Source of the DNA: a bacterium
Lineage (GTDB): Bacteria; Patescibacteriota; Patescibacteriia; JACQRZ01
Reading direction: 5' to 3'
Assembly (NCBI GenBank): GCA_030688365.1
Contig: JAUYIE010000004.1
Coordinates: forward strand, 5,931-69,930
DNA length: 64,000 nucleotides
Below the pieces are notes generated by a model, which saw only the letters and a program-made list of their open reading frames with translations, was not told the origin of the DNA and ran no database searches. The translations under genes were made by a program, and so were the position numbers. Positions within the stretch are counted from its first letter, which is position 1; the number at the start of each line of letters is the position of its first letter. Of the stretch, positions 2,762 to 64,000 are shown piece after piece.

Positions 2762-4276
2762 CTAATGAAAATTAATTAAAAAAGAAATTGCATTTGCTAT
2801 TCTTTCAAGTGTTTTTTCTTTACCTAATGCGTCAGCTATCTCAAATGGTCCGGGGCTATTCTGTTGTCCGCTCAATGCTACCCGTAGTGGCCATAAAACA
2901 GCACCATTTTTGAGTCCTTTATTGGTAATTTCAGTTTTAATGGCCATTTCAATAGAAGGTGTCGTAAAATCAGCATCTTTCATCTGTTTTATTATATCAC
3001 GTCCGAGTCCTAGCATTTCGCAAGTCTCTTCTTTGGATTTATCTTTCCATGATAACAAGTGCGGGTCATATTCCAATGTGTCAGTCAGACAAAATGCAAT
3101 ATGCGGCGGAATCTCGGAAAGGACTTTTGCTCTGTCTTGCTCAAGGGCAATATATTTTTCTAGCAAATCCCGCGATATAGTTTCCTTATTTGCATTGATA
3201 ACAAAGCTTGTTGCCTTCATTATATCATCTTTTGGTAATTCAAGATATCCTTGATCAAACAAGTGTGGAAGTACACGACTGGTGAGTTCATTAATTGGAA
3301 GCGCGCGAATGTAGTGACTATTTAACCATTGTAGTTTTTCAATATTAAAAATTGCTCCAGATTTTTGGACTCGTTCAAAACTAAATTGCTCAATAAGCTC
3401 GGGTAATGAAAAGATCTCCTGTTCGGTACCTGGATTCCATCCCAGTAGCGCCAAAAAATTTATCAATGCCTCCGGTAAATACCCTTCTGCACGGTAATCT
3501 AACAGTGAAACTTTATTTTTTCTTTTACTCATTTTTGATCTATCGGGATTGAGAATCAATGGAATATGAGCATATATCGGAGTAGAAAAACCAAGTGCTT
3601 TGATAAATAACACCTGTTTGGGAGTATTTGAGAGATGTTCTTCTCCACGGATTACATGAGTTATCTTCATCTCGTGATCGTCAATGACCACTGCAAGGCC
3701 GTACAGCGGTGTGTGCGTATCTTTTGCAACAACTACATCACCAATCAACGTGCCGTCAAATTCAACGCGACCACGAACAAGATCTTCAAAATGAATTTTT
3801 TCTGGCGGTATACGAAAACGAAGTACCGACGATGCACCACTTTCAATTCGTTTTTTTACCTCATCATCTGTCAAATGTGCACATGTTCCATTATAGATTT
3901 GTGGATTCTTATTTGATACATTCTGTTTTCGTTGAAATTCAAGCTCTTCTTCGGTACAAAAACAGTGGTAAAGTGATCTTTGATCGAGTAATTTCTGAAG
4001 ATACCGCTCATATATATCAGTTCTTTCACTTTGTCTATACGGAGCGTATTGTCCACCACAATCAGGTCCTTCATCCCAATCCATACCAAGCCACTTAAGT
4101 CCTTCCATGATATCATCCTCATATTCCTTTTTTGATCGTTCTTTGTCGGTGTCTTCAATCCTGCACACTACCACGCCGTTATTACGACGAGCAAATAAAA
4201 TATTTACGAGCACCGTACGGACTGTGCCAATATGAAGAAATCCGGTTGGCGATGGCGCAAAGCGTGCTCGTATCAT
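2762..4276 (-). CDS. gltX: Glutamyl-tRNA synthetase
   Basis: N-terminal RFAPSPTGFLHIG (HIGH motif) and KMSKRK (KMSKS motif). 504 aa. Confidence 0.9.
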   Translation of the reverse strand: MIRARFAPSPTGFLHIGTVRTVLVNILFARRNNGVVVCRIEDTDKERSKKEYEDDIMEGLKWLGMDWDEGPDCGGQYAPYRQSERTDIYERYLQKLLDQRSLYHCFCTEEELEFQRKQNVSNKNPQIYNGTCAHLTDDEVKKRIESGASSVLRFRIPPEKIHFEDLVRGRVEFDGTLIGDVVVAKDTHTPLYGLAVVIDDHEMKITHVIRGEEHLSNTPKQVLFIKALGFSTPIYAHIPLILNPDRSKMSKRKNKVSLLDYRAEGYLPEALINFLALLGWNPGTEQEIFSLPELIEQFSFERVQKSGAIFNIEKLQWLNSHYIRALPINELTSRVLPHLFDQGYLELPKDDIMKATSFVINANKETISRDLLEKYIALEQDRAKVLSEIPPHIAFCLTDTLEYDPHLLSWKDKSKEETCEMLGLGRDIIKQMKDADFTTPSIEMAIKTEITNKGLKNGAVLWPLRVALSGQQNSPGPFEIADALGKEKTLERIANAISFLINFH

Positions 4277-18999: not shown

Positions 19000-19446
19000 T
19001 TATCGTGTTACAGTAACAGTCGCGCTTTGCTCAGGAAACTGTGCAACTACGGTAATACGGCCATTAACAGATTTGCTTATTTTATACCCTGCACCGTTTG
19101 CATTGGTTTTTTGTGGTTCTTCCGGCATTGAAGTCAGATATTTTTCATCTGTCGTCAACACACTAAGATCAATTAAACTTGTACACGTACCGCCGGTAGC
19201 ACAGATTTCTGTAGGAGTAGTAGTGATACTTGCCGGTAATGTCCCACTGTTATCAATAGTATACTGGTATACTGCGTTGAGAATAGTATTCACATCCGAT
19301 CTTCGTTGAGCATTGCGCGTGTCACCTAATTGTTTACCGGGGTTGATGGCCAAAATCACGATACCTGCCAAAACAGCGATAGCCGCCACAACAAGCAATA
19401 TTTCTAACAGTGTAAAGCCCTTTTGATTCTTTTTTGGAATAGGCAT
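19000..19446 (-). CDS. Type IV pilin (prepilin with class III signal, G/FTLLE)
   Basis: N-terminal KGFTLLEILLVVAAIAVLAGIVILA prepilin peptidase motif and hydrophobic helix. Confidence 0.8.
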   Translation of the reverse strand: MPIPKKNQKGFTLLEILLVVAAIAVLAGIVILAINPGKQLGDTRNAQRRSDVNTILNAVYQYTIDNSGTLPASITTTPTEICATGGTCTSLIDLSVLTTDEKYLTSMPEEPQKTNANGAGYKISKSVNGRITVVAQFPEQSATVTVTR

Positions 19447-19457
19447 AGAGAAAATAT

Positions 19458-19946
19458 CTATCGAGTTATTTTAATAGTCGCGCCCTGTTCAGCACTAGGG
19501 GCACAAACAGTCACGCGACTGTTGGCAGTCCTCACGATGTAATAACCAGTGCCATCACTTGACGATACACTGGGATCAATCGGCATGCTGGTCAAATATT
19601 TTTCACCGGTCGTCAAAACACTCAAGTCAACTCCGGCAGAGCACGTACCTGTCGCAGTCGCCTTGCAGACTTCATCCTCTGTATCAAGCGCACACGTACT
19701 GATCGGAATAGTGGGTAATGTACCATTATTATCAATACTATATTGATATACGGCATCAAGTATCGTACGAATATCTGATCGGCGCTGTGCATTTCGAGTA
19801 TCTCCAAGCTGTTTGCTAGGGTTTAAAGCTAAAATAACAATGCCTGCCAAGATAGCAATTGCCGCAACCACCAACAAAATTTCCAAAAGTGTAAAGCCTG
19901 CTTCAGTATTTTTTTTTGTTGATTTCTTGTCCAATGGCATCGTCAT
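19458..19946 (-). CDS. Type IV pilin, tandem paralog of the adjacent pilin
   Basis: The N-terminal 60 aa are nearly identical to the 19000-19446 product. The C-terminal half is divergent, including the Cys pair. Confidence 0.8.
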   Translation of the reverse strand: MTMPLDKKSTKKNTEAGFTLLEILLVVAAIAILAGIVILALNPSKQLGDTRNAQRRSDIRTILDAVYQYSIDNNGTLPTIPISTCALDTEDEVCKATATGTCSAGVDLSVLTTGEKYLTSMPIDPSVSSSDGTGYYIVRTANSRVTVCAPSAEQGATIKITR

Positions 19947-36744: not shown

Positions 36745-39700
36745 TTAGGGTTTGGTAGTACAATATGGGTTTATTGTACTGAAATGCTGTGGATCTTCAA
36801 GATTCATACATATTTCGTATCCAGTACCATCTGAAGTCTTATACGTATAGATATGAGAATCTTTCTGCGCCTTAGCAGCATCTGTTCGTAGAGCACTTTC
36901 AACATCGTTCCCATATCCAAAGTCACCATTTTGTGCGTTCCAACATGTCTTTTGATCAAATCCGGAGGGACACAATGGAAATGCCTTGCCTTCTACTTTT
37001 GCCAGTGGGTCAGCGGGAAGGGCTACACGTAATGCGTTACCTAAGGTACTTTGCCAGGACGGCCATGCTGATGTTGATTGTCCTTTTATAAAACTTCCGG
37101 AAGCAAGGGCAGGATACGGTATCGCATTATTTTTAGCATATTTACTCAACAAATACTGCATATCAGCCATATCTGAGAGACGATGTAAATCTCTTCTCAT
37201 TATATCAGGATTGGTATCATGTGCAACACTCATCACCAATTTCATATTTTGCAAAAGACTCGCAAAGATTTGTTGTGTACTACTTTTCGCGCCTACGTTA
37301 TAGGAAAATGAAAGAATATAAAACACGTTATCCGTTCCTTGTATGAAAATGTATACACCCGTACTGTCACGAACAGCCTGATAACCATCAACGAGCGTTG
37401 AAGAAGGGCTTTCTTTCCCTGATTGATGTACGCGATACCATTGATATGCTGAAAGCATATCATTATTTTTCGCAATACGAACTGCAATGACATCACTATT
37501 TTTGGTATCTACAATATTTAAATCCCCTTTTGTAGAATCAGCAAACGGAAAAATAAATTCTTGCTGAAATATTCCTCGATCAGTACTATTGGGATCTACC
37601 TGTATCGGCGGCTTTAGTAAACCAGGGAGTAAATTTGTTGATGTATTTCCTCGGCAATAGTATGACTTAAAATTATATGCGGCAAGACCAGAAACATCTG
37701 TACTGTCAAATTCCCATAGTTCTGAACATAAGTAACTTTTAATTGGAAAATGCTCGGTCTTCACTGGTCCTTTTGTTTGGCACTCTAGCTCCTTTTGAGT
37801 ATCCGTGATTTTGTCCGGAGGATCACATGTTGGATCACGTTGGGTCAACGTTACACTCATACTTGCATTACCACTCGTAGGCATTGCAGTCACCTCAAGA
37901 ATTGATTGATTAGTTGCACCACTAAACTGAATAATACTGTCACCTGTTAATTTCCACTCATATGATTGGACTACTATTTCAGAATCATCATAGGACATAC
38001 CAACTGCCTGATACACATGCTGATTTCCTGGTTTAAAAGGATTTTGATCTCCAATACCACAATCATTACCGGCACAACTGATAAAATCAACATCATTAGC
38101 GGGTAATGAGTCACCATTAATGTAAATTAAAACGTGATCCAAAGGTGCAATCTCATCTCCAACATCAACCGGAATCAAAGAACCGTCGCCCCCATTGTCA
38201 GGAGGTGTGCTGTTGTCAGGAGGTGTGTCGTTGTCAGGAGGTGTGTCGTTGCATGTATATTCAGTAGATGTGACTTCAATAGTATCTAATGTACTATTTT
38301 TATTTGTATCAAGTCCTGTTTCAATTTTTCTTCCTGCATATGGACAATTACTTCCTTTCGGTTCATATGTATCTCTCACAAGACTAAAAATCTGATTATC
38401 ACCAGACCCTGAATTGCACGCGTATTCAGTAGAGCTCACTTCGCTGGAATCCAACGTACCATTTCTATTTGTATCAAGACCAGTATCAGTCCTGCGTCCT
38501 CCATTTTGACAATGGGATCCTGGTGGTTCATCACTGGCAGTAATGAGACGATTTATAGGTAACGGAGACGAACCACCATTATCATTGTCTCCAGACTGAT
38601 TGGTTGGAGGAGGAGTATTGCACGCATATTTTGTAGAAGTGACCTCGTTAGGATCCAAGATACCATCTCTATCAGTATCCAGTCCTGACACTGTCTTCCT
38701 TCCTGCATACGGACAATTACTACCACTTGGTTCGTATGTATTTCTCACCAAATTATAGAGTGTATTGTTCCCGGAACCCGCATTACACGCATACGAGGTA
38801 GCAGTTACTTCTCTAGAATCCAGCACACCATTTCTATTTGTATCCAGACCGGCATCAGTCCTGCGTCCTCCATTTTGACAATGAGATCCTCTTGGCTCGC
38901 TGGTCACTCTTACAAGATTATTGAGGGGAAGTGTGGACGATCCTTGATTGGATGTTGGAGAAACGCCGTTAGGGGTAATTCCTCCCGTAATTTCAATATT
39001 ATATTTTTTATTGCACTGCAACTGTGTCTTTGGAATAAAACGAACTTCTGTGCGGGCATCATCACCGATTCCAACAGTGTTAAATTCAAAATGTCCATTT
39101 GCATTTGGTACTATTCTCATCCTGCTGCGCGCGCTTTCCTCATTGATTACCTGATTAAATGTCACCTTAATAATGCTATTGCAATAAGCGTTAGGAGATT
39201 TTGGTTGGACGTCAATCACTGCCACCTTCTTGGGTGTAGTGGCACATTTTGCATTTACACAATTATTGGATGAACATTGTTGTGGACTATAACACTTTCC
39301 TCCGATCGGCAATCCTCCTTGAACACATTTAGACTCAAAACAGTTATTTGAGATACATTCGTTATTCGCACTACAACTTTCTCCAATTACCTTCAATACT
39401 GATTTACATGTACCTGAACTACACCATAACCCTTCCTTGCATTGAGTGTCCCATGTACAAGCAGCTGTTTCTCCAAGGTCCCCACGCACGCATTTATTCT
39501 CTTCACCACATACACCAGAACTACATTCTTCATTTTTTGAGCAAGATTCATTTAATTGCTTCAATTCACCTGTAAAAAAACTCCAGCGGTATGTACAAGA
39601 AATCACTGTGTTCACGCATGTACCAGTGGTTCTAAATGAACCATCACTACAACAAGTCCGCGACTGATCGCCTGCTGCTACATTACACCTGCCCACCTCA

Positions 39701-51903: not shown

Positions 51904-52080
51904 TTAAGACTTGTCTGCTAGCCTATCTTTAATGAAACCATTTTTCTTCATAAAATTGACGACCGGTTTTGCACATATTTCACACAATTCCTTTCCATTA
52001 CTAAACCATCCTATGCGGACATATATCACGGCACCGTCGGAAATCTCTTTATGACAAATATCACACTGATGTGTCGTCAT
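51904..52080 (-). CDS. Small zinc-ribbon protein (CxxC...CxxC)
   Basis: MTTHQCDICHKE...CEICAKP, 58 aa from the ATG at 52080. Lies between the hicB and vapC modules. Confidence 0.45.
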   Translation of the reverse strand: MTTHQCDICHKEISDGAVIYVRIGWFSNGKELCEICAKPVVNFMKKNGFIKDRLADKS

Positions 52081-52087
52081 AGACAAG

Positions 52088-52140
52088 CATGTTAATGTTT
52101 AGAATCCAAACGTAGCACACGAAAAAATTGAAGGCAAATG
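52088..52140. repeat. Copy 1 of an approximately 53-bp direct repeat (catgttaatgtttagaa...acgtagcacacgaaaaaa.tga.ggcaaatg), about 85 percent identical to the copy at 52925-52978
   Basis: Direct comparison of the two segments. Together they bracket vapBC. Confidence 0.7.
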
Positions 52141-52908: not shown

Positions 52909-52924
52909 GCGGATCAATGAGAAA

Positions 52925-52978
52925 CATGTTAATGTTTAGAACATTAACGTAGCACACGAAAAAAACTGAGGCAAATGT
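52925..52978. repeat. Copy 2 of the approximately 53-bp direct repeat; contains a perfect palindrome GTTAATGTT-TAG-AACATTAAC
   Basis: 9-bp inverted arms with a 3-nt spacer, located just upstream of the vapBC promoter and just downstream of the RT1 stop. The palindrome is degenerate in copy 1. Confidence 0.7.
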
Positions 52979-52979
52979 G

Positions 52980-53984
52980 TTACCCTGTCTCATCCAGTAG
53001 CCAATGATCGTTGAGTATACTTGTCCTTATTTTGTGGGTATTCCCATGTGATAACAGTCCGAGATATGACTGAAGCGTCGCTTCGTTAGAATCATGAGAC
53101 AACTTTTTGAACATTCGCCGTCTTGTTGTCGCCCGCAGTACATGATGATCGGCAAAGTGCACCCAGCCCAAATAATCTACCCCTGACGCAATGGTACGAA
53201 TGCTGACTTTATTGGGATGCAATGAAAGCTTGAGCTTGTCTGATAAAAAATCCTGTATCGGATCAATAGTGCGCTCGAGTATACTTCTATCCTGTGACAA
53301 CAGAACAAAATCATCGGCATATCGGATATAATGTGGCACTCGCATATCGTGCTTGATGTATTGGTCAAATAAATTCATGTATATATTGGCAAACAGTTGC
53401 GATGTAAGATTCCCCAATGGAAGTCCTTTATCACTAGACGATTTAAAACTCCCGATTATTCTTGAAAGCAACCACAATATCTTTCTGTCAGGGATATAAT
53501 CCTCCAATATACAATATAAAACGGCATGATCTATGCTCGCAAAGAATTTTCGTATATCACATTTGAGAACGTAACATGTACGAGTATTGTTCCTGCTTAC
53601 CTTGCACGAGTAAGATGTAAATCGATCCATTGCGCTGTGAGTACCTTTGCCCACACGAGCTGAAAATGAATCAGCGATAAACTTTGTTTCAAAAAAAGGA
53701 TATAATATACGGTGAAGAGCGTGATGTACCACCCGATCGCGCACCTGCGCCTTGTGGATTTCCCGTGATTTTGGATCATTGATATAAAAACGTGTATACG
53801 CGCCATGCATGTACTCACCTGACAATAGCTCCTCATGCAACGCATTGATGTTTTCAAACAGATGATCTCGAAACGCGCGGACATCCCACTTGTTCCGTTT
53901 CCCACATTCAAACTCGAGCCACGCTTCAATCAAATTGTCGTGCGAAATAATATCTTCAAATGTATGTCCCAACAATATTTTCAT
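52980..53984 (-). CDS. Diversity-generating retroelement reverse transcriptase (DGR RT1)
   Basis: RT domains 1-7, with the DGR-specific LPLGNLTSQ (GxxxSQ) replacing the group II intron QGxxxSP, plus YIRYADDFV. 334 aa. A cognate TR/VR pair lies nearby. Confidence 0.9.
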   Translation of the reverse strand: MKILLGHTFEDIISHDNLIEAWLEFECGKRNKWDVRAFRDHLFENINALHEELLSGEYMHGAYTRFYINDPKSREIHKAQVRDRVVHHALHRILYPFFETKFIADSFSARVGKGTHSAMDRFTSYSCKVSRNNTRTCYVLKCDIRKFFASIDHAVLYCILEDYIPDRKILWLLSRIIGSFKSSSDKGLPLGNLTSQLFANIYMNLFDQYIKHDMRVPHYIRYADDFVLLSQDRSILERTIDPIQDFLSDKLKLSLHPNKVSIRTIASGVDYLGWVHFADHHVLRATTRRRMFKKLSHDSNEATLQSYLGLLSHGNTHKIRTSILNDHWLLDETG

Positions 53985-54002: not shown

Positions 54003-54010
54003 CCCCCCCC
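54003..54010. repeat. Poly-C homopolymer (8 nt) in the divergent RT1-avd1 intergenic region
   Basis: cccccccc read directly. The equivalent tract in DGR2 is 10 nt. Confidence 0.9.
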
Positions 54011-54031: not shown

Positions 54032-54388
54032 TTGCAAAAAGCCGTAGAAACATACAAACTATGGCATTTGTTCTTACAGCAGATGCCTCGTCTTACTCGA
54101 TTTAGTCTTGGTACAAAAATCGACATATTGTTTACCGACACGTTACAGCTCATGCTCTCTGCGAAATACGCACCACGAGAACAAAAGCTGGAATACATAC
54201 GAACATTGTGCACCAACATAGATGCCATCAAATTCTTTTTGCAAATCGCGTTTGAGCTCAAGGCATTAAGCGCTAAAAAATATTCCAGTGTGTCCATACC
54301 TCTGGAAGAGATCGGAAAAATGGTCGGCGGGTGGAAAAAACAGCTGGAAAAAGAAAATCCTGCCACAAAAACTTCATGGCAGGAATGA
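54032..54388 (+). CDS. avd: Avd-like accessory variability determinant (four-helix-bundle protein, TIGR02436-like), predicted TTG start
   Basis: About 118 aa helical protein with C-terminal IPLEEIGKMVGGWKKQL, matching the Avd/23S-IVS four-helix-bundle family. Paralog at 62879-63295. Adjacent to RT and TR. Confidence 0.8.
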   Translation: MQKAVETYKLWHLFLQQMPRLTRFSLGTKIDILFTDTLQLMLSAKYAPREQKLEYIRTLCTNIDAIKFFLQIAFELKALSAKKYSSVSIPLEEIGKMVGGWKKQLEKENPATKTSWQE

Positions 54389-54399
54389 TACGAGAGAGT

Positions 54400-54523
54400 T
54401 GCTCGAACGCAAGGAAACGATAGTTGTCATTCCAATCACCAGCCAGCTTGTTGAGGTTGAGCTTACGCTTGTCGTTGTTCCTGTTCAACACAGGAGCACA
54501 CAGATCACCGTTCTCATTGCGAA
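54400..54523 (-). repeat. DGR1 template repeat (TR1), 124 bp
   Basis: Aligns base-for-base (offset +499) with 54899-55022. All 20 mismatches are T in TR on the plus strand (A on the minus strand) versus C/G/A in VR. Confidence 0.85.
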
Positions 54524-54785
54524 AATGCACGGAATATCATCTTTGACACCACCCTTTGACTCGCCATCTGGCACATTCTCGGGGTTGAATCGTATTCGGG
54601 GCATTTCAGCCCGCCAATATTCCGCACCAAGTCTCTTCGTAATCGCGAAGCAATCGGGCACACGCTGTATGGTAACAAAAAACGCCATACATTCCGGCTT
54701 CCCAAAAAGCTCCAGAGTTCGACCGCCATGAAGTCGTAACGACATGGATACTTCTCTACTTTCCAAAACTCAGTATATCACGCTG

Positions 54786-54876: not shown

Positions 54877-55518
54877 CTAAGTGCCTTCCGAAGAAACCTG
54901 CTCGAACGCAAGGAAACGATAGTTGCCACTCCAATCACCAGCCAGCCCGTGGAGGCCGAGCAACCGCCAGTCGTTGAGCCCGTCCAACACAGGAGCACAC
55001 AGAACACCGCGCCCATCGCGAATTTCAATACCCATCAAACAAACGATTGGATATTTTAATTGTTCATCGGGGTTGTTTATGGCGTACTGTAATATTCTGG
55101 CAGGAGTAGCCTTGATCAAACCTTTTTCTTCGATCTTTTTTTCTGCATCTTCAGTCGAAATTTTTCCCAGATCAAGGATACGGACTTTTAACATTTCTAC
55201 ACCGACAGCTGGATCTATCGGAAACGTTTTTTCATTGATGTGACTGTTTACATAATAAAAATTTACGATTTTGATTTGATCGGAAAAACTCTTGTTGTTA
55301 TCAACTATTATGAGTCCAGAATTATCAACTTTCTTCGAAATTTCATTCAATGAACCGACAATAATTTGAGCAACCTTTTTCCTGCGGTCTGTGTCTTTCA
55401 AATACGCGTCTATGTGGTCATCTGTACCACCTTCATCCAGAATATCATTAAAGATAATTTTCACTACCTCAAAGATCTTTCCGAACAGTTTCAGATAACC
55501 ACTTGTTTTTTTAGCCAT
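54877..55518 (-). CDS. DGR1 variable (target) protein, 213 aa, no signal peptide; VR encodes the C-terminal roughly 41 aa
   Basis: Full ORF. The C-terminus IRDGRGVLCAPVLDGLNDWRLLGLHGLAGDWSGNYRFLAFEQ corresponds to the TR-encoded NENGDLCAPVLNRNNDKRKLNLNKLAGDWNDNYRFLAFEQ. Confidence 0.85.
   Translation of the reverse strand: MAKKTSGYLKLFGKIFEVVKIIFNDILDEGGTDDHIDAYLKDTDRRKKVAQIIVGSLNEISKKVDNSGLIIVDNNKSFSDQIKIVNFYYVNSHINEKTFPIDPAVGVEMLKVRILDLGKISTEDAEKKIEEKGLIKATPARILQYAINNPDEQLKYPIVCLMGIEIRDGRGVLCAPVLDGLNDWRLLGLHGLAGDWSGNYRFLAFEQVSSEGT
54899..55022 (-). repeat. DGR1 variable repeat (VR1)
   Basis: See TR1. The 3' end (low coordinate) has a 26-nt invariant block (putative IMH) ending 22 nt before the stop codon. 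Confidence 0.85.
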
Positions 55519-55724
55519 TTTAATGTACTCCTATTTTCGCCTACTCCTTGCTTTTCCCCTATTTTAGGGTTAGACCTAGAGCTTGCACTTATATATAACA
55601 ATACTAAGATACTTGCATATTTTACCGATTTTGTCAAGATTATGACCACCAAAAGCTTATATTTCGAAAGTGAACGAGTATTATTGAGTATGAGAAAGAG
55701 CTGACAGATATACTGAAGGGCTGT

Positions 55725-55842
55725 TTGATTTCTCTTTTAAAAATTTTATGAGCGAGTCAAGTGTTGGGAAGAAAAGTTGAAACGAGCGAATAGAAGTGAG
55801 GAGGGAGACTTACCTACTCGTTACCACCACCGTCGCCGAACG
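55725..55842. mobile_element. MITE-like element, copy 1: 118 bp with perfect 19-bp terminal inverted repeats (TTGATTTCTCTTTTAAAAA)
   Basis: Left TIR 55725-55743, right TIR 55824-55842 (exact reverse complement). The core is about 80 percent identical to the reverse complement of the core at 61784-61883. Confidence 0.7.
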
Positions 55843-55891
55843 CTTTTTAAAAGAGAAATCAAATACCCCGCTCAAGCAGGACAAACACTCC

Positions 55892-60327: not shown

Positions 60328-61694
60328 GCCGATTTCTTTTTACTTTTTTCTTCGGTGACGACCATGACGGGCGTCCCTTGGAAACTATACAACTCGCGAA
60401 GACGATTTTCCAAATACCGAAGATACTCATATCTAATACTAGCACGGCTGTTGACAGAAAGTATAAACGTCGGCGGACAGCCCAGTCGCTGTTTGATGCC
60501 AAAAATGCGCGGTCGTTTGCGTCCCATCGGCCAGATCGGCGGTTGACGTGTCATTGCTGTTTTGAGAAACGCAGTGAGTTCTTCTTGTGGAATTTCTTTC
60601 TCGCGCTCTTTCTGCACTTCAATTATTATATCAAGAATTTTCTTAACGCGCTGTTTTGTGAGGGCGGACACAAAGATATCCGGCGCCCATTTTATAAACT
60701 CAAAAAACTTATGAAAATATTTTTTGTACGCATCACTACTTTTGACTGTCTTTTCTTCCACCAAATCCCATTTGTTTACTACCAACACGATACCCGCACC
60801 GGAAGAGACAGCAATATCAGCAAGACGGCTTTCCTGTTTTGACGCGGTAGTCATGGCATCCAGTACCAAAAGTGCTACATCTGCTTTTTCAATATTTTTG
60901 ATACTGCGTTTAACTCCTTCGTATTCTATACCATGCTGAACTTTGCTTTGCTTACGGATACCGACGGTGTCGATAAGGATGATTGGCTGATCTTCGTACA
61001 CAATAATAGTGTCATGCGGTTCACGAGTGGTATGGGCGATAGGACTGGCAATGACGCGTTCTTCATCAAGAATCGCATTGAGCAAGGATGACTTACCGAC
61101 GTTTGTACGACCAACGATAGCAACTTTGATCGGTGCTTTTGTCGGTGCGGGTGTAGCGACGCGTTTGAGTAATGGATGTACTTCGTCCAAAAGGTCGCCA
61201 ACTCCTCGTCCGCTTGCGGCTGAAACACTATATCCGGAACCGATACCCAGTTTGTTCCAATTTTGTGAAGATAAAGCAATGTGTTCTTTTTGTTTGTCTA
61301 TTTTATTGATTACCAAATACACAGGCGTCTTGGTTGCTTTTTGGATGACTTTGAGATACGCACGGTCATCAGGATGGATGTCTTCTTTGCCATCTACGAT
61401 AAACAAAATAACATCTGCTTTTTTTAGCATGGCAAGCGCGTGGGCATAAGTTTTTTCCTCAATCTCATCAGTAGGCTTTGGCACAAAACCACCGGAGTCT
61501 GCCACCTGAAAGGTAAAATCACGCCAGTTGCCGATCCCATAGTTCACGTCACGCGTAGTTCCCGCGTCAGACGAAATAACGGCCTTTTTCTCTTCTATCA
61601 AACGATTAAACAGTGTTGATTTGCCAACATTAACCCGTCCTACAAGAGCAACAAGCGGGTATGGATTCTCTTTTTGTATGGTGCGGACTGGCAT
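60324..61694 (-). CDS. der: Ribosome-biogenesis GTPase Der (EngA)
   Basis: Two tandem G domains (GRVNVGKSTLFN; GRTNVGKSSLLN) and a KH-like C-terminus. Confidence 0.9.
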   Translation of the reverse strand: MPVRTIQKENPYPLVALVGRVNVGKSTLFNRLIEEKKAVISSDAGTTRDVNYGIGNWRDFTFQVADSGGFVPKPTDEIEEKTYAHALAMLKKADVILFIVDGKEDIHPDDRAYLKVIQKATKTPVYLVINKIDKQKEHIALSSQNWNKLGIGSGYSVSAASGRGVGDLLDEVHPLLKRVATPAPTKAPIKVAIVGRTNVGKSSLLNAILDEERVIASPIAHTTREPHDTIIVYEDQPIILIDTVGIRKQSKVQHGIEYEGVKRSIKNIEKADVALLVLDAMTTASKQESRLADIAVSSGAGIVLVVNKWDLVEEKTVKSSDAYKKYFHKFFEFIKWAPDIFVSALTKQRVKKILDIIIEVQKEREKEIPQEELTAFLKTAMTRQPPIWPMGRKRPRIFGIKQRLGCPPTFILSVNSRASIRYEYLRYLENRLRELYSFQGTPVMVVTEEKSKKKSA

Positions 61695-61764
61695 ATACGA
61701 GCATTAAAGCATGAAATTGGGAGAAAAGCGAGAGGAAAGAGGTGGTGTATCTCGAGCAGGGTAT

Positions 61765-61902
61765 TTGGTTCTTCTTTTAAAAAGCGTTCGGCAACGGTAC
61801 TGGTAATGAGTGTGTTAATCTCCCTCCTCACTTCTATTCGCTCATCTCAATATTTTCATCGTACATTTGACTCGCTCATAAAATTTTTAAAAGAAGAACC
61901 AA
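61765..61902. mobile_element. MITE-like element, copy 2: 138 bp with perfect 19-bp TIRs (TTGGTTCTTCTTTTAAAAA), inverted relative to copy 1 and overlapping the RT2 3' end
   Basis: Left TIR 61765-61783, right TIR 61884-61902. The last 15 codons of the RT2 ORF (FGSSFKNFMSESNVR) are encoded by element sequence. Confidence 0.7.
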
Positions 61903-62899
61903 ATACCTGCCATCTTACGTCACTCAAACCCCGTCTTATCTTCGCAGTGTTCCCGTGACTCAATAATCCCATATATGACTGCATTTGAGCAGGATCATTC
62001 TTTCCTGCTTTGATATGACGGAACATCCTCTTTTTTGTCGCTGTCCTCAACACTCGATGATCAGGAAAATGTACCCAACCGAGGAAATCAACACCCGATG
62101 AAAATGTTTTGAGAAAAAGCTTGTTGGGATGAAGCTGAAGATGTAGCCGTGAAGATAGAAACTCCTGAATCATCGGGACGAGTGTCTCTAACCATTCTAT
62201 GTCAGATGACAATACCACAAAATCATCAGCGTAACGTATGTAATACCGAGTGTGGGCGGTATGTTTCATAAACTGATCCAATTCATTCATATACACGTTG
62301 GCAAACACCTGTGATGTAAGATTGCCCAGTGGTAAACCGACACCGCGATGAGTCGTATGGAAACTACCGATGATGCGATACAAAAGATCAACAATCCGAG
62401 AATCGGGTATTGATAATTTCAATATATCAATAAGTACCTCATGCGATATAGACGCAAAAAACTTGCATATATCGCACTTGAGTGCCCATGCGGTACGAGT
62501 ATGATTCCTTGAAACGACATATTCCATAGAACGGAATCGATCAAGCGCTTTATGCGTTCCCTTTCCATCTCTGCATGAATACGAATCATGAATAAACCGC
62601 GTATCAACATACGGATACAATATACGATAAATTGCGCGATGGAGTACTCTGTCACGCACCGACGCCTTATGTATCTCCCGTGGTTTTGGATCATTGATGC
62701 GAAACGCCTGGTATGCACCGTGTCTGTATCTATTGGTCGCAAGGTCATGATGCAGTATAATAAGATTACTCATGAGATTCTGCTCAAATTCAATAACATC
62801 ACTGCGACAGGATTTTCCTATACGAAATTCTCGCCATGCCTCAAGGAGATTCTCAAGAGAAATAATATCTTCATACGTATGAATGAATTTTCCGGACAT
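61856..62899 (-). CDS. Diversity-generating retroelement reverse transcriptase (DGR RT2), paralog of RT1 with an element-derived C-terminal tail
   Basis: LPLGNLTSQVFANVYM and YIRYADDFV motifs. About 60 percent identity to RT1 across the full length. Confidence 0.9.
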   Translation of the reverse strand: MSGKFIHTYEDIISLENLLEAWREFRIGKSCRSDVIEFEQNLMSNLIILHHDLATNRYRHGAYQAFRINDPKPREIHKASVRDRVLHRAIYRILYPYVDTRFIHDSYSCRDGKGTHKALDRFRSMEYVVSRNHTRTAWALKCDICKFFASISHEVLIDILKLSIPDSRIVDLLYRIIGSFHTTHRGVGLPLGNLTSQVFANVYMNELDQFMKHTAHTRYYIRYADDFVVLSSDIEWLETLVPMIQEFLSSRLHLQLHPNKLFLKTFSSGVDFLGWVHFPDHRVLRTATKKRMFRHIKAGKNDPAQMQSYMGLLSHGNTAKIRRGLSDVRWQVFGSSFKNFMSESNVR

Positions 62900-63295
62900 A
62901 TCACTAATGTTACCCCCCCCCCGAGGCTTTTACCAGTCCTGCAAAAGATAAAGTCAGTATATATCCTCTGGCATGGATATTATCAGGTACTGCCAAAAAC
63001 TCATCGTTACAGTATTGGGCTTCGCATTGATACTTTATTCGTAGAGCTCATTGAAGCCACCTCCATAGCAGGATTCCTCTCTCGTGAAGAAAAACAACCA
63101 CTCGTGCGCATCGCTATCAGAAAAAATGACACCATAAAAATCTTTCTCATGGTGCTCTGGGAAACAGGATCACTAGAAACAAAACGATATGTCACACTTT
63201 CACTACCCCTAGAAGAAATCGGCAGAATGTTGGGCGGATGGAACGGACAACTACAAAAACAAAACTCTCCCGTCATTGCGAGGGGAGAGAAATGA
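62879..63295 (+). CDS. avd: Avd-like accessory protein (paralog of avd1), start uncertain (ATG 62879 overlapping the RT2 start on the other strand, or CTG 62939)
   Basis: C-terminal LPLEEIGRMLGGWNGQLQKQN aligns with avd1 IPLEEIGKMVGGWKKQLEKEN. N-terminal (L)QKIKSVYILWH aligns with avd1 (L)QKAVETYKLWH. Confidence 0.7.
   Translation: MNEFSGHITNVTPPPRLLPVLQKIKSVYILWHGYYQVLPKTHRYSIGLRIDTLFVELIEATSIAGFLSREEKQPLVRIAIRKNDTIKIFLMVLWETGSLETKRYVTLSLPLEEIGRMLGGWNGQLQKQNSPVIARGEK
62913..62922. repeat. Poly-C homopolymer (10 nt) between the RT2 start and the avd2 core
   Basis: cccccccccc read directly. Lies inside the avd2 ORF if translation starts at ATG 62879, and upstream of it if translation starts at CTG 62939. 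Confidence 0.9.
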
Positions 63296-63301
63296 AGAGA
63301 G

Positions 63302-63436
63302 TTGCGACGGGCAAACAACAAGCGATTGTCGGGATTGAGCATGTTGTCGGGATGAATGTAGTTCGTGTTGAGCCAGAACTCACCATCGTTGAAATTCACG
63401 TTGAACACGTTGGGATCGCCATCGGAGTCCGTAATG
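63302..63436 (-). repeat. DGR2 template repeat (TR2), about 135 bp, starting 7 nt after the avd2 stop
   Basis: Aligns at offset +498 with 63800-63934. 15 of 16 mismatches before the ragged 5' end are T in TR (plus strand) versus N in VR. Confidence 0.8.
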
Positions 63437-63515
63437 TATACCATGCCATCTGTGCCACTGCCTTATGATTACTCACAAAGCTGTATCGAATCTGCGATCA
63501 ATAATCGCCCAGCAT

Positions 63516-63543
63516 AATATACCAAGTATCTTCGTTTTTTGAA
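63516..63543 (-). promoter_or_regulatory. Candidate promoter for TR2 RNA (minus strand TTCAAA-16-TATATT), about 70 nt upstream of the TR2 5' end
   Basis: Read from the sequence. Weak match to the consensus. Confidence 0.25.
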
Positions 63544-63727
63544 TAATCTCAATCACCACACTACCCCCAATCGTAATCAAGGATATTCTGGATGAAGGGA
63601 TACTGGCTTCGGCCGCGGGAAACCATAATCTCCCGCACGATTCACCTAGCGCCACAATCAGTATACCCTTAATTTTCCAAAAAAATATTCCTCGCCATAA
63701 TTATGGTTTGGAATATTATTCAATATT

Positions 63728-63742
63728 AGGTCTAAGAGCTCG
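63728..63742. other. GC-rich hairpin (GCTCGC-ttc-GCGAGC) about 60 nt downstream of the VR2 3' end
   Basis: Perfect 6-bp inverted repeat. A second hairpin (GCGGGA-n10-TCCCGC) lies at 63621-63642. Confidence 0.35.
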
Positions 63743-63795
63743 CTTCGCGAGCAAGTAACAAAGTGCAGAAGAGTTAATCCTCCAAAAACTAAGAG

Positions 63796-64000
63796 CTACT
63801 TGCGACGGGCAAACAACACGCGAGCGTCGGGATCGAGCATGCGGTCGGGATGAATGTAGTCCGCGTAGAGCCAGAACTCACCACCGTCGAAATGCACGTT
63901 GAACACGTCGGGAGCGCCAGCGGAGTCCGTAATGGTATCCATGGCGAGAATAGCCCAGTTTCTGTCGTCTTTTTCTGCTTTTTTCAAAACGACTTCTATT
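63796..64000 (-). CDS. DGR2 variable (target) protein, C-terminal part only; the ORF is open to the window edge and VR2 encodes the last roughly 45 aa
   Basis: C-terminus ITDSAGAPDVFNVHFDGGEFWLYADYIHPDRMLDPDARVLFARRK matches the TR2-encoded ITDSDGDPNVFNVNFNDGEFWLNTNYIHPDNMLNPDNRLLFARRN. Stop TAG at 63796-63798. Confidence 0.7.
   Translation of the reverse strand, partial: IEVVLKKAEKDDRNWAILAMDTITDSAGAPDVFNVHFDGGEFWLYADYIHPDRMLDPDARVLFARRK
63800..63934 (-). repeat. DGR2 variable repeat (VR2)
   Basis: See TR2. Asn (AAC/AAT) codons in TR correspond to D/H/Y/A/R codons in VR. Confidence 0.8.

Follow-up and report, generated by a model that had tools for sequence, protein, structure and literature searches.

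Thousands of diversity-generating retroelements (DGRs) with the B3 layout are known from bacteria of the candidate phyla radiation (CPR). This architecture, written TR-(avd)-RT for template repeat (TR), avd and reverse transcriptase (RT), is found in 90% of CPR DGRs (Wu et al. 2018, PMC5758913), and a CPR-restricted DGR clade 2 has targets without recognisable domains (Roux et al. 2021, PMC8144416). We analysed a window of 64,000 nucleotides (nt) from the Patescibacteria contig JAUYIE010000004.1, in which positions 61856-64000 were found to hold a complete second DGR (DGR2), with all parts lying where an earlier sequence-only reading of the window had placed them. The other element, DGR1, is located 8.9 kb upstream in the same arrangement. 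In DGR2, the TR lies upstream of a reversed avd gene, which is followed by the RT gene on the TR strand, as the B3 definition has it. Because this layout matches the published B3 architecture and CPR clade 2, DGR2 is an ordinary member of a described class, and we put the probability that it is a bona fide chromosomal DGR of the Patescibacteria (CPR) type at about 90%.

The template repeat of DGR2 (TR2, 63302-63445) and its variable repeat (VR2, 63800-63943) form a direct repeat of 144 nt with 87% identity and a spacing of 498 nt, and the last 19 nt of the two copies are identical. Within the 135-nt core (63302-63436 and 63800-63934), 15 mismatches were found on the minus strand, of which 14 fall at TR adenines; on the coding strand, these adenines are replaced by G in eight cases, by C in five, and by T in one. 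Mismatches thus affect 14 of 34 adenine positions and 1 of 101 other positions (Fisher p = 4.6e-9). The earlier reading had counted 15 differences at TR adenines, a figure that corresponds to all mismatches, but the bias it described is real, and re-tabulation of the TR/VR substitutions retained it and gave no non-adenine pattern. Every one of the 34 adenines of TR2 occupies codon position 1 or 2 of the VR frame. Nine TR2 codons are AAY (AAC or AAT), and about 23 hold an adenine as read from the sequence. The peptides encoded by TR2 and VR2 differ at 13 residues; the nine amino-acid changes listed previously were right in substance, with D184A, D186A, D196G, and L218V missed. An adenine-mismatch-tolerant scan of the window plus a 523-nt extension showed one VR per TR and no cross-targeting.

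Read from high to low coordinates, the minus strand carries the target open reading frame (ORF) with VR2 at its 3' end, ~350 nt of non-coding sequence, TR2, and RT2, while avd2 lies on the plus strand, converging on TR2 and divergent from RT2. The features of the locus are:

61856-62899, minus strand: RT2, an ORF with an RVT_1 match
62913-62922, no strand: C10 tract separating the starts of avd2 and RT2, reading as G10 on the RT strand
62879-63295, plus strand: avd2, start uncertain, with sub-cut-off matches to bAvd and DivGenRetAVD
63253-63289, minus strand: stem-loop (63265-63289) and U-tract (63253-63264), conserved 3' of TR2, with covariation
63302-63445 (core 63302-63436), minus strand: TR2, 144-nt direct repeat
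63437-63665, minus strand: -10-like box TATACT (63665 to 63660), then the 5' domain of a structured RNA, with covariation
63679-63795, minus strand: region 3' of the target with CTTNG repeats, GC hairpin, and weak terminator, as read from the sequence
63800-63943, minus strand: VR2, coding for target residues ~179-224
63796-64000, minus strand: 3' part of the target gene (full gene 63796-64470 in extended coordinates)

The product of RT2 has 347 amino acids (aa), matches RVT_1 (E 2e-23), and contains both motifs of the DGR lineage of RTs, namely LGNLTSQ of the [I/L/V]GxxxSQ type and YADD of the YxDD type. The earlier identification of a second DGR from GNLTSQ and YADD in RT2 and LEEIGRMLGGW in avd2 was borne out, as these motifs were read in the translations and domain matches were found. 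An exact look-up of the 347-aa RT2 protein returned no match, and that of a 305-aa RT2 gene call returned only one Logan contig (L081). A total of 401 RT2 relatives were confirmed in contigs representing one genome per species, with a top identity of 74%, and the best 80 of these 401 were labelled almost all as Patescibacteria or its candidate phyla. In a large protein collection, at least 7959 proteins match RT2 at E <= 1e-60. RTs that adjoin adenine-biased TR/VR pairs in other genomes are 58-74% identical to RT2.

The avd2 gene ends with a TGA codon at 63293-63295, and TR2 begins 6 nt past this stop, directly after it as had been described. Its product is 63-69% identical to the Avd found at the same position in related loci, so that the accessory protein of a DGR is present, and avd1 of DGR1, which is 40% identical to avd2, passes Pfam. 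Two start candidates were recognised, ATG 62879, which is in frame through the C10 tract, and CTG 62939, at the place where most relatives start at TTG. The nearest relative (L001) shares the CTG with DGR2 at this usual TTG site, and the Logan gene call for avd2 has 138 aa. Across the family, avd lies upstream of RT on the opposite strand in 75/75 informative related loci, i.e., those with enough upstream sequence. An adenine-biased TR/VR pair was found in ~60 related loci, where the TR ends ahead of the avd stop by a median of ~6 nt, and the VR lies 400-550 nt further upstream.

VR2 had been described as the C-terminus of a minus-strand ORF that runs off the window edge, and indeed the ORF has its stop at 63796-63798 and is open at 64000. 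Extension past 64000 recovered the full gene. Window positions 61821-64000 recur unchanged in Logan contig L081 (run SRR13727534), which extends to 64523, and the full target, P0063, is a 224-aa protein, listed by NCBI as 'hypothetical protein Q8P11_00995' (contig of 70,564 nt), that is 100% identical to the target fragment in the window. The gene spans 63796-64470 and has a Shine-Dalgarno site (AAGGAG) 7 nt upstream of its ATG. A profile of homologous target C-termini from related loci retrieved 659 proteins, P0063 among them. With this site and these homologues, VR2 is part of a real gene, at whose 3' end it stands with the TR adenines at codon positions 1-2, as is typical of DGRs.

In the AlphaFold2 model of P0063 (92-sequence alignment, pLDDT 81), two helices at the N-terminus are followed by a disordered stretch (residues 49-64) that links them to a mixed alpha/beta domain (residues 74-224). 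This C-terminal domain, which carries VR2, is predicted to adopt a C-type-lectin fold. P0063 has no hydrophobic segment, and no signal peptide or membrane anchor is apparent. Searches of Pfam, NCBIfam, and PDB sequences gave no significant match for either target family (of DGR1 or DGR2), and a metagenome scan with a 24-mer of the target gave no match. P0063 agrees with the finding that CPR DGR targets have no transmembrane or other recognisable domain (Roux et al., PMC8144416).

TR2 is flanked on both sides by structured RNA elements that are supported by covariation, a stem-loop after the TR and a 5' domain upstream of it. A stem-loop with a U-rich run (consensus CGCAACTCTCTTCATTTCTCTCC-loop-GGGAGAGTTTTGTTTT) directly follows the TR, on the TR strand, in every locus. 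Among 25 aligned loci, 6/8 of its pairs show compensatory changes, and 87.5% of cells are paired compared with 71.7% after shuffling; 0/500 shuffles came up to the observed 87.5%. The DGR2 copy sits 13 nt after TR2 and overlaps the 3' end of avd2 on the opposite strand, and the DGR1 copy is detected by a simple terminator scan. Stem-loops just downstream of the TR have been predicted in 207/278 DGRs, CPR included (Handa et al., bioRxiv 10.1101/2023.10.23.563531). By analogy, the DGR2 stem-loop is likely the counterpart of the Avd-binding stem-loop of DGR RNA, and together with its U-tract it may double as the terminator of the TR transcript.

Judging from its conservation, the interval between VR and TR is not a spacer. 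Its elements keep one order across 58 loci: first comes a CTTNG array, then the target terminator, made up of a variable GC hairpin and a T-run, then a -10-like box, and finally conserved sequence that extends into the TR 5' end. In DGR2, a 6-bp GC hairpin (63738-63752) lies 44 nt past the target stop, and a palindrome (63695-63706) followed by T7 (63685 to 63679) reads as a weak terminator. The -10-like box (consensus T.TGaTAtAaT) lies a median of 227 nt before the TR in 55/58 loci, 32 of which have an upstream TG. It is followed by a structured domain of ~215 nt that runs into the 5' end of TR2 and whose equivalent in DGR1 lies at ~54524-54770. The helices of this domain in DGR2 are:

63636-63615, minus strand: helix P1
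63596-63552, minus strand: helix P2
63521-63511 with 63447-63437, minus strand: helix P3, long-range, closing the domain at the TR 5' boundary
63507-63495, minus strand: helix P4
63481-63460, minus strand: helix P5

RNAalifold predicted 46 pairs in a 49-sequence alignment (A5), and 41 of them show compensatory changes. In this alignment, 95.5% of cells are paired compared with 73.7% after shuffling, 520 cells show double changes compared with 128, and the covariation is 0.716 compared with <= 0.20 for slid-partner controls; on none of the five measures did any of the 500 shuffles reach the observed value. DGR2 makes a standard pair at 45/46 positions, the remaining one being U·U. No Rfam family (Rfam 15) was found, either in the whole window at the gathering threshold or in 61600-64000 at E <= 1. 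Handa et al. examined just 40 nt upstream of the TR (bioRxiv 10.1101/2023.10.23.563531), and Wu et al. (PMC5758913) make no mention of a structured RNA element in the VR-TR interval. From its conservation, the ~215-nt domain probably constitutes the 5' portion of the RNA that DGRs of this clade use.

The pentamer CTTNG occurs 3.6 times per locus within 0-70 nt after the VR, compared with 0.32 in upstream controls and 0.42 after the TR (59 loci). This ~11-fold enrichment is strand-specific and absent after the TR, and the copies have a preferred spacing of 7-8 nt. The array is degenerate in both cassettes, with three copies in DGR2 (63725-63795) and one in DGR1. As a feature that sets VR apart from TR, the array is a candidate for marking the recipient site.

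Simple-sequence tracts mark the junction between avd and RT. In the 64-kb window (41% G+C), the only G/C runs of at least 7 nt are the C10 tract of DGR2 (62913-62922) and a C8 tract at the same place in DGR1 (54003-54010). In 63/76 related loci, a G8-G14 run on the RT strand precedes the RT ATG by 7-20 nt, and another repeat, (GT)n, (GGTT)n, (ATTG)n, or (TGGCGGC)n, occupies the site in 6/76. There are 65 G/C runs of at least 8 nt in the 78-nt junctions, compared with 9 in the remaining 1.1 Mb of the related loci. RTs that are 86-90% identical carry (GGTT)3, (GGTT)11, and (GATT)7 at the tract site. In nine assemblies of the group encoding the related RT P0145, in which RT and flanks are identical, the tract measures G8, 9, 9, 9, 9, 9, 10, 11, and 11. 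In three other exact-RT groups (P0228, P0181, and P0199), the tract is invariant (G6, G11, and G9 across the three), and the DGR2 locus shows a single length (10) in the window and L081. Most related avd genes begin at a TTG downstream of the tract. As read from the sequence, ATG 62879 is in frame with avd2 at C10, and ATG 62907 would be at C11 or C8. Considered as a possible promoter, the tract is followed by TANNNT in 27/65 loci, with no -35-like box evident.

Contingency loci, e.g., those of Neisseria and Haemophilus, carry poly-G/C or tetranucleotide tracts, which lie in promoters or in the 5' part of coding regions. The avd/RT tract resembles them in being a long repeat at a fixed regulatory or 5'-coding site between divergent genes, in the swapping of repeat type between lineages, and in length differences between otherwise identical alleles. 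It differs in that three of the four exact-RT groups are invariant in length and in that the link to expression is hypothetical. On sequence grounds, it is a reasonable hypothesis that the tract may be a contingency-type phase-variation switch of the DGR. It is also possible that the length differences are homopolymer assembly errors, or that the role of the tract is purely structural. Two other functions were considered. Poly-G as the Shine-Dalgarno site of RT was rejected, as it lies 7-19 nt from the ATG and a GGAGG/AAGGA site is present separately in several loci, and a G-quadruplex is insufficient as the common property of the tract, as (GATT)7 and (GT)n fill the same site in some lineages. 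Our literature search found no report linking DGRs with such tracts or describing a phase-variable DGR. The wider proposal, that the tract would be a slipped-strand switch of Avd and/or RT expression, and hence of hypermutation, alongside an undescribed DGR RNA with its own promoter and a CTTNG mark on the recipient, is tentative, and we give it clearly less than even odds.

A mechanism for DGR2 can be proposed by homology with the Bordetella phage DGR. A dedicated minus-strand RNA would be transcribed from the -10 box (63665-63660) and would comprise the ~215-nt structured 5' domain, TR2, and the stem-loop with its U-tract, where the transcript would presumably end. RT2 and Avd2 would bind this RNA and reverse-transcribe TR2, with misincorporation opposite adenines. 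The cDNA would then replace VR2, recoding up to ~23 codons of the C-type-lectin-fold domain of the target. In this scheme, the ends of the transcript, the roles of its RNA elements, the activity of the DGR2 copy at the present day, and the biological role of the target are inferred, while the analysis itself establishes the components, the adenine-specific pattern, the full target gene with its predicted fold, and the conservation and covariation of the RNA. Diversification was observed in a relative with the same layout, P0145, whose RT is 63% identical to RT2 and is encoded identically in nine assemblies from different samples. In the four of these assemblies that reach the VR (L094-L097), the VR alleles differ at 19 TR-A columns and one TR-T column, and the flanks are identical. 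The P0145 alleles are direct evidence of target diversification in nature by DGRs of the B3 type in Patescibacteria.

Several observations weigh against DGR2 being a bona fide DGR. The matches of avd2 fall below the curated cut-offs, with E 8e-9 and 36.4 bits for bAvd (cut-off 40) and E 4e-13 and 49.5 bits for NCBIfam DivGenRetAVD (cut-off 80). The gene lacks the TTG start typical of its relatives and relies on an upstream ATG that reads through C10, and the final ~15 codons of RT2 are supplied by an inserted 153-nt repeat element. The window and L081, which perhaps derive from the same reads, are the only assemblies of the locus, and VR2 does not differ between them. RNAduplex across the loci identified no conserved priming duplex between TR and spacer, the positions being inconsistent. 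Beyond a single T/G, no difference between the initiation of mutagenic homing sites IMH and IMH* can be defined in TR2/VR2. That T/G is the lone non-adenine mismatch (T to G, TR 63321 / VR 63819), 20 nt from the 3' end; as it lies 3' of the last A-to-N change, it could sit in the uncopied part of the TR (the IMH/IMH* region). IMH and IMH* can be identical, and an inverted repeat is present in just 34% of DGRs (Wu et al., PMC5758913). Some of the observations above would suit a decaying, inactive relic whose TR/VR differences record past activity, in particular the missing canonical avd2 start at the homologous position and the sub-threshold hidden Markov model scores, the replaced C-terminus of RT2, and the VR heterogeneity not seen between the two available assemblies, to which can be added the degenerate CTTNG array after VR2 (3 copies compared with a mean of 3.6, irregularly spaced). 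However, the frames of RT2 and avd2 are intact over all homologous residues, and their identities to the proteins of other genomes (Avd2 63-69%, RT2 60-74%) argue for purifying selection. TR2 retains its 34 adenines, none of which is at codon position 3, VR2 continues the reading frame with no stop codon, and 45/46 conserved RNA positions form a standard pair in DGR2. We therefore regard a relic as improbable.

A different objection would be that the 144-nt repeat arose by ordinary duplication or gene conversion and happens to lie beside an unrelated RT of a group II intron, retron, or defence system. The top NCBIfam match of RT2 is a group II intron RT/maturase model (135.9 bits), followed by weaker retron and Drt matches, and yet these scores are far below the respective cut-offs of 300, 235, and 200 bits, and Rfam detects neither a group II intron nor any other RNA family. 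Moreover, the substitutions are adenine-specific (p = 5e-9) and avoid codon position 3, an Avd is present, and in ~60 other genomes the same RT clade goes together with adenine-biased TR/VR pairs. This explanation is effectively refuted, and a DGR of the CPR type remains the preferred reading of the locus.

DGR2 had been called paralogous to DGR1 with the same layout, and gene order, strands, and the TR-VR spacing of ~498/499 nt match in the two elements. The features of DGR1 are:

52980-53984: RT1
54032-54388: avd1
54393-54523: TR1
54892-55022: VR1
54877-55518: target gene of DGR1 (target1)

RT1 and RT2 are 58% identical. Since RT2 is closer to 78/80 foreign RTs than to RT1, the pair is not a recent tandem duplication. 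In pairwise comparison, the two targets give a BLASTP E of 0.039, and a profile against the single sequence is not significant, whereas the profiles of the target2 family and the five-sequence target1 family align over 183 columns, nearly full length, with 97% probability and E 5e-11. The claim that the two DGRs diversify different, unrelated proteins thus holds for the genes, which are different, and for relatedness only at the pairwise level; profile comparison shows that the targets are remote paralogues/homologues of one protein family. No homologue of target1 besides itself was found in a word-indexed search, and its single-sequence AlphaFold2 model (pLDDT 36) was unusable. Paired retroelement cassettes recur in related genomes. 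Contig L064 has two identical target1-like genes (86-709 and 3348-3971) upstream of one RT; in L002/L006 and L073, a second, more divergent RT (34-42% identical) lies within a few kb, that of L073 with a same-strand avd; and one metagenome-assembled genome contributes two loci.

Other repeats were noted in the window. The 153-nt element is present in two inverted copies (55724-55876 and 61751-61903) that are 82% complementary, each with a terminal stem (inverted repeat) of 24-26 bp with compensatory differences, and the copies bracket the xth-topA-dprA-pth-der block between DGR1 and DGR2, the second copy being the one that encodes the end of RT2. The element looks like a miniature inverted-repeat transposable element or a structured RNA; neither Rfam nor the related loci nor a metagenome scan with its 25-nt core returned a match. 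A 64-nt direct repeat (52077-52140 and 52914-52977, 81% identical) has its second copy directly downstream of the RT1 stop and its first upstream of a small minus-strand gene. Diverged direct repeats at 38249-38898 (281 nt, 75%) and 19235-19914 (201 nt, 73%), in or between minus-strand ORFs, are probably internal or tandem gene duplications unrelated to the DGRs.

As a DGR, DGR2 adds little to what is known, and its value is that of a clean, fully resolved case with two divergent cassettes side by side. The comparison with ~60 relatives exposed three features that are not mentioned in the literature examined, a scope outside which Paul et al. 2017 falls, namely the covarying 5' RNA domain in the VR-TR interval, the VR-specific CTTNG array, and the near-universal repeat at the avd/RT junction. 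If the repeat does tune expression, a targeted mutator would itself be switched on and off stochastically. Should the RNA domain be required, a CPR DGR could be reconstituted from a defined substrate, a step that to our knowledge nobody has taken for uncultivated bacteria.

The DGR of Bordetella phage BPP-1 (mtd-avd-TR-brt), the prototype, shares with DGR2 an RT and an Avd, adenine mutagenesis between TR and VR, and a target with a C-type-lectin fold (predicted for DGR2) and a C-terminal VR. The DGR2 stem-loop just 3' of the TR is at the site of the Avd-binding stem-loop of BPP-1 (Sp 3-33), and BPP-1 requires RNA flanks on both sides of the TR, both of which are conserved in DGR2-type loci. 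In contrast, avd of DGR2 is on the opposite strand, downstream of the TR, so that the RNA 3' of the TR is antisense to avd, and the upstream flank is a ~215-nt structured non-coding domain, where BPP-1 has the 3' end of avd. DGR2 lacks the 14-bp GC-rich IMH and any match to the Rfam RT motifs, and carries a CTTNG array after the VR, whereas BPP-1 has a single GC hairpin directly after the IMH. Its target is chromosomal and has no hydrophobic segment, whereas that of BPP-1 is a phage tail fibre. P0063 also differs from the cellular DGR targets TvpA of Treponema denticola and LdtA of Legionella, which carry signal sequences and are lipoproteins or secreted, in having neither a hydrophobic segment nor a Pfam/NCBIfam domain. 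The CPR B3 DGRs are the closest match. DGR2 shares with them the gene order and strands, the reversed avd between TR and RT with the TR a few nt from the avd stop, a small target without a recognisable domain or membrane anchor, the C-terminal VR, and the host lineage. Its peculiarities relative to them, which touch nothing essential, are the two cassettes 8.9 kb apart, the CTG in place of TTG in avd, and the repeat-altered C-terminus of the RT.

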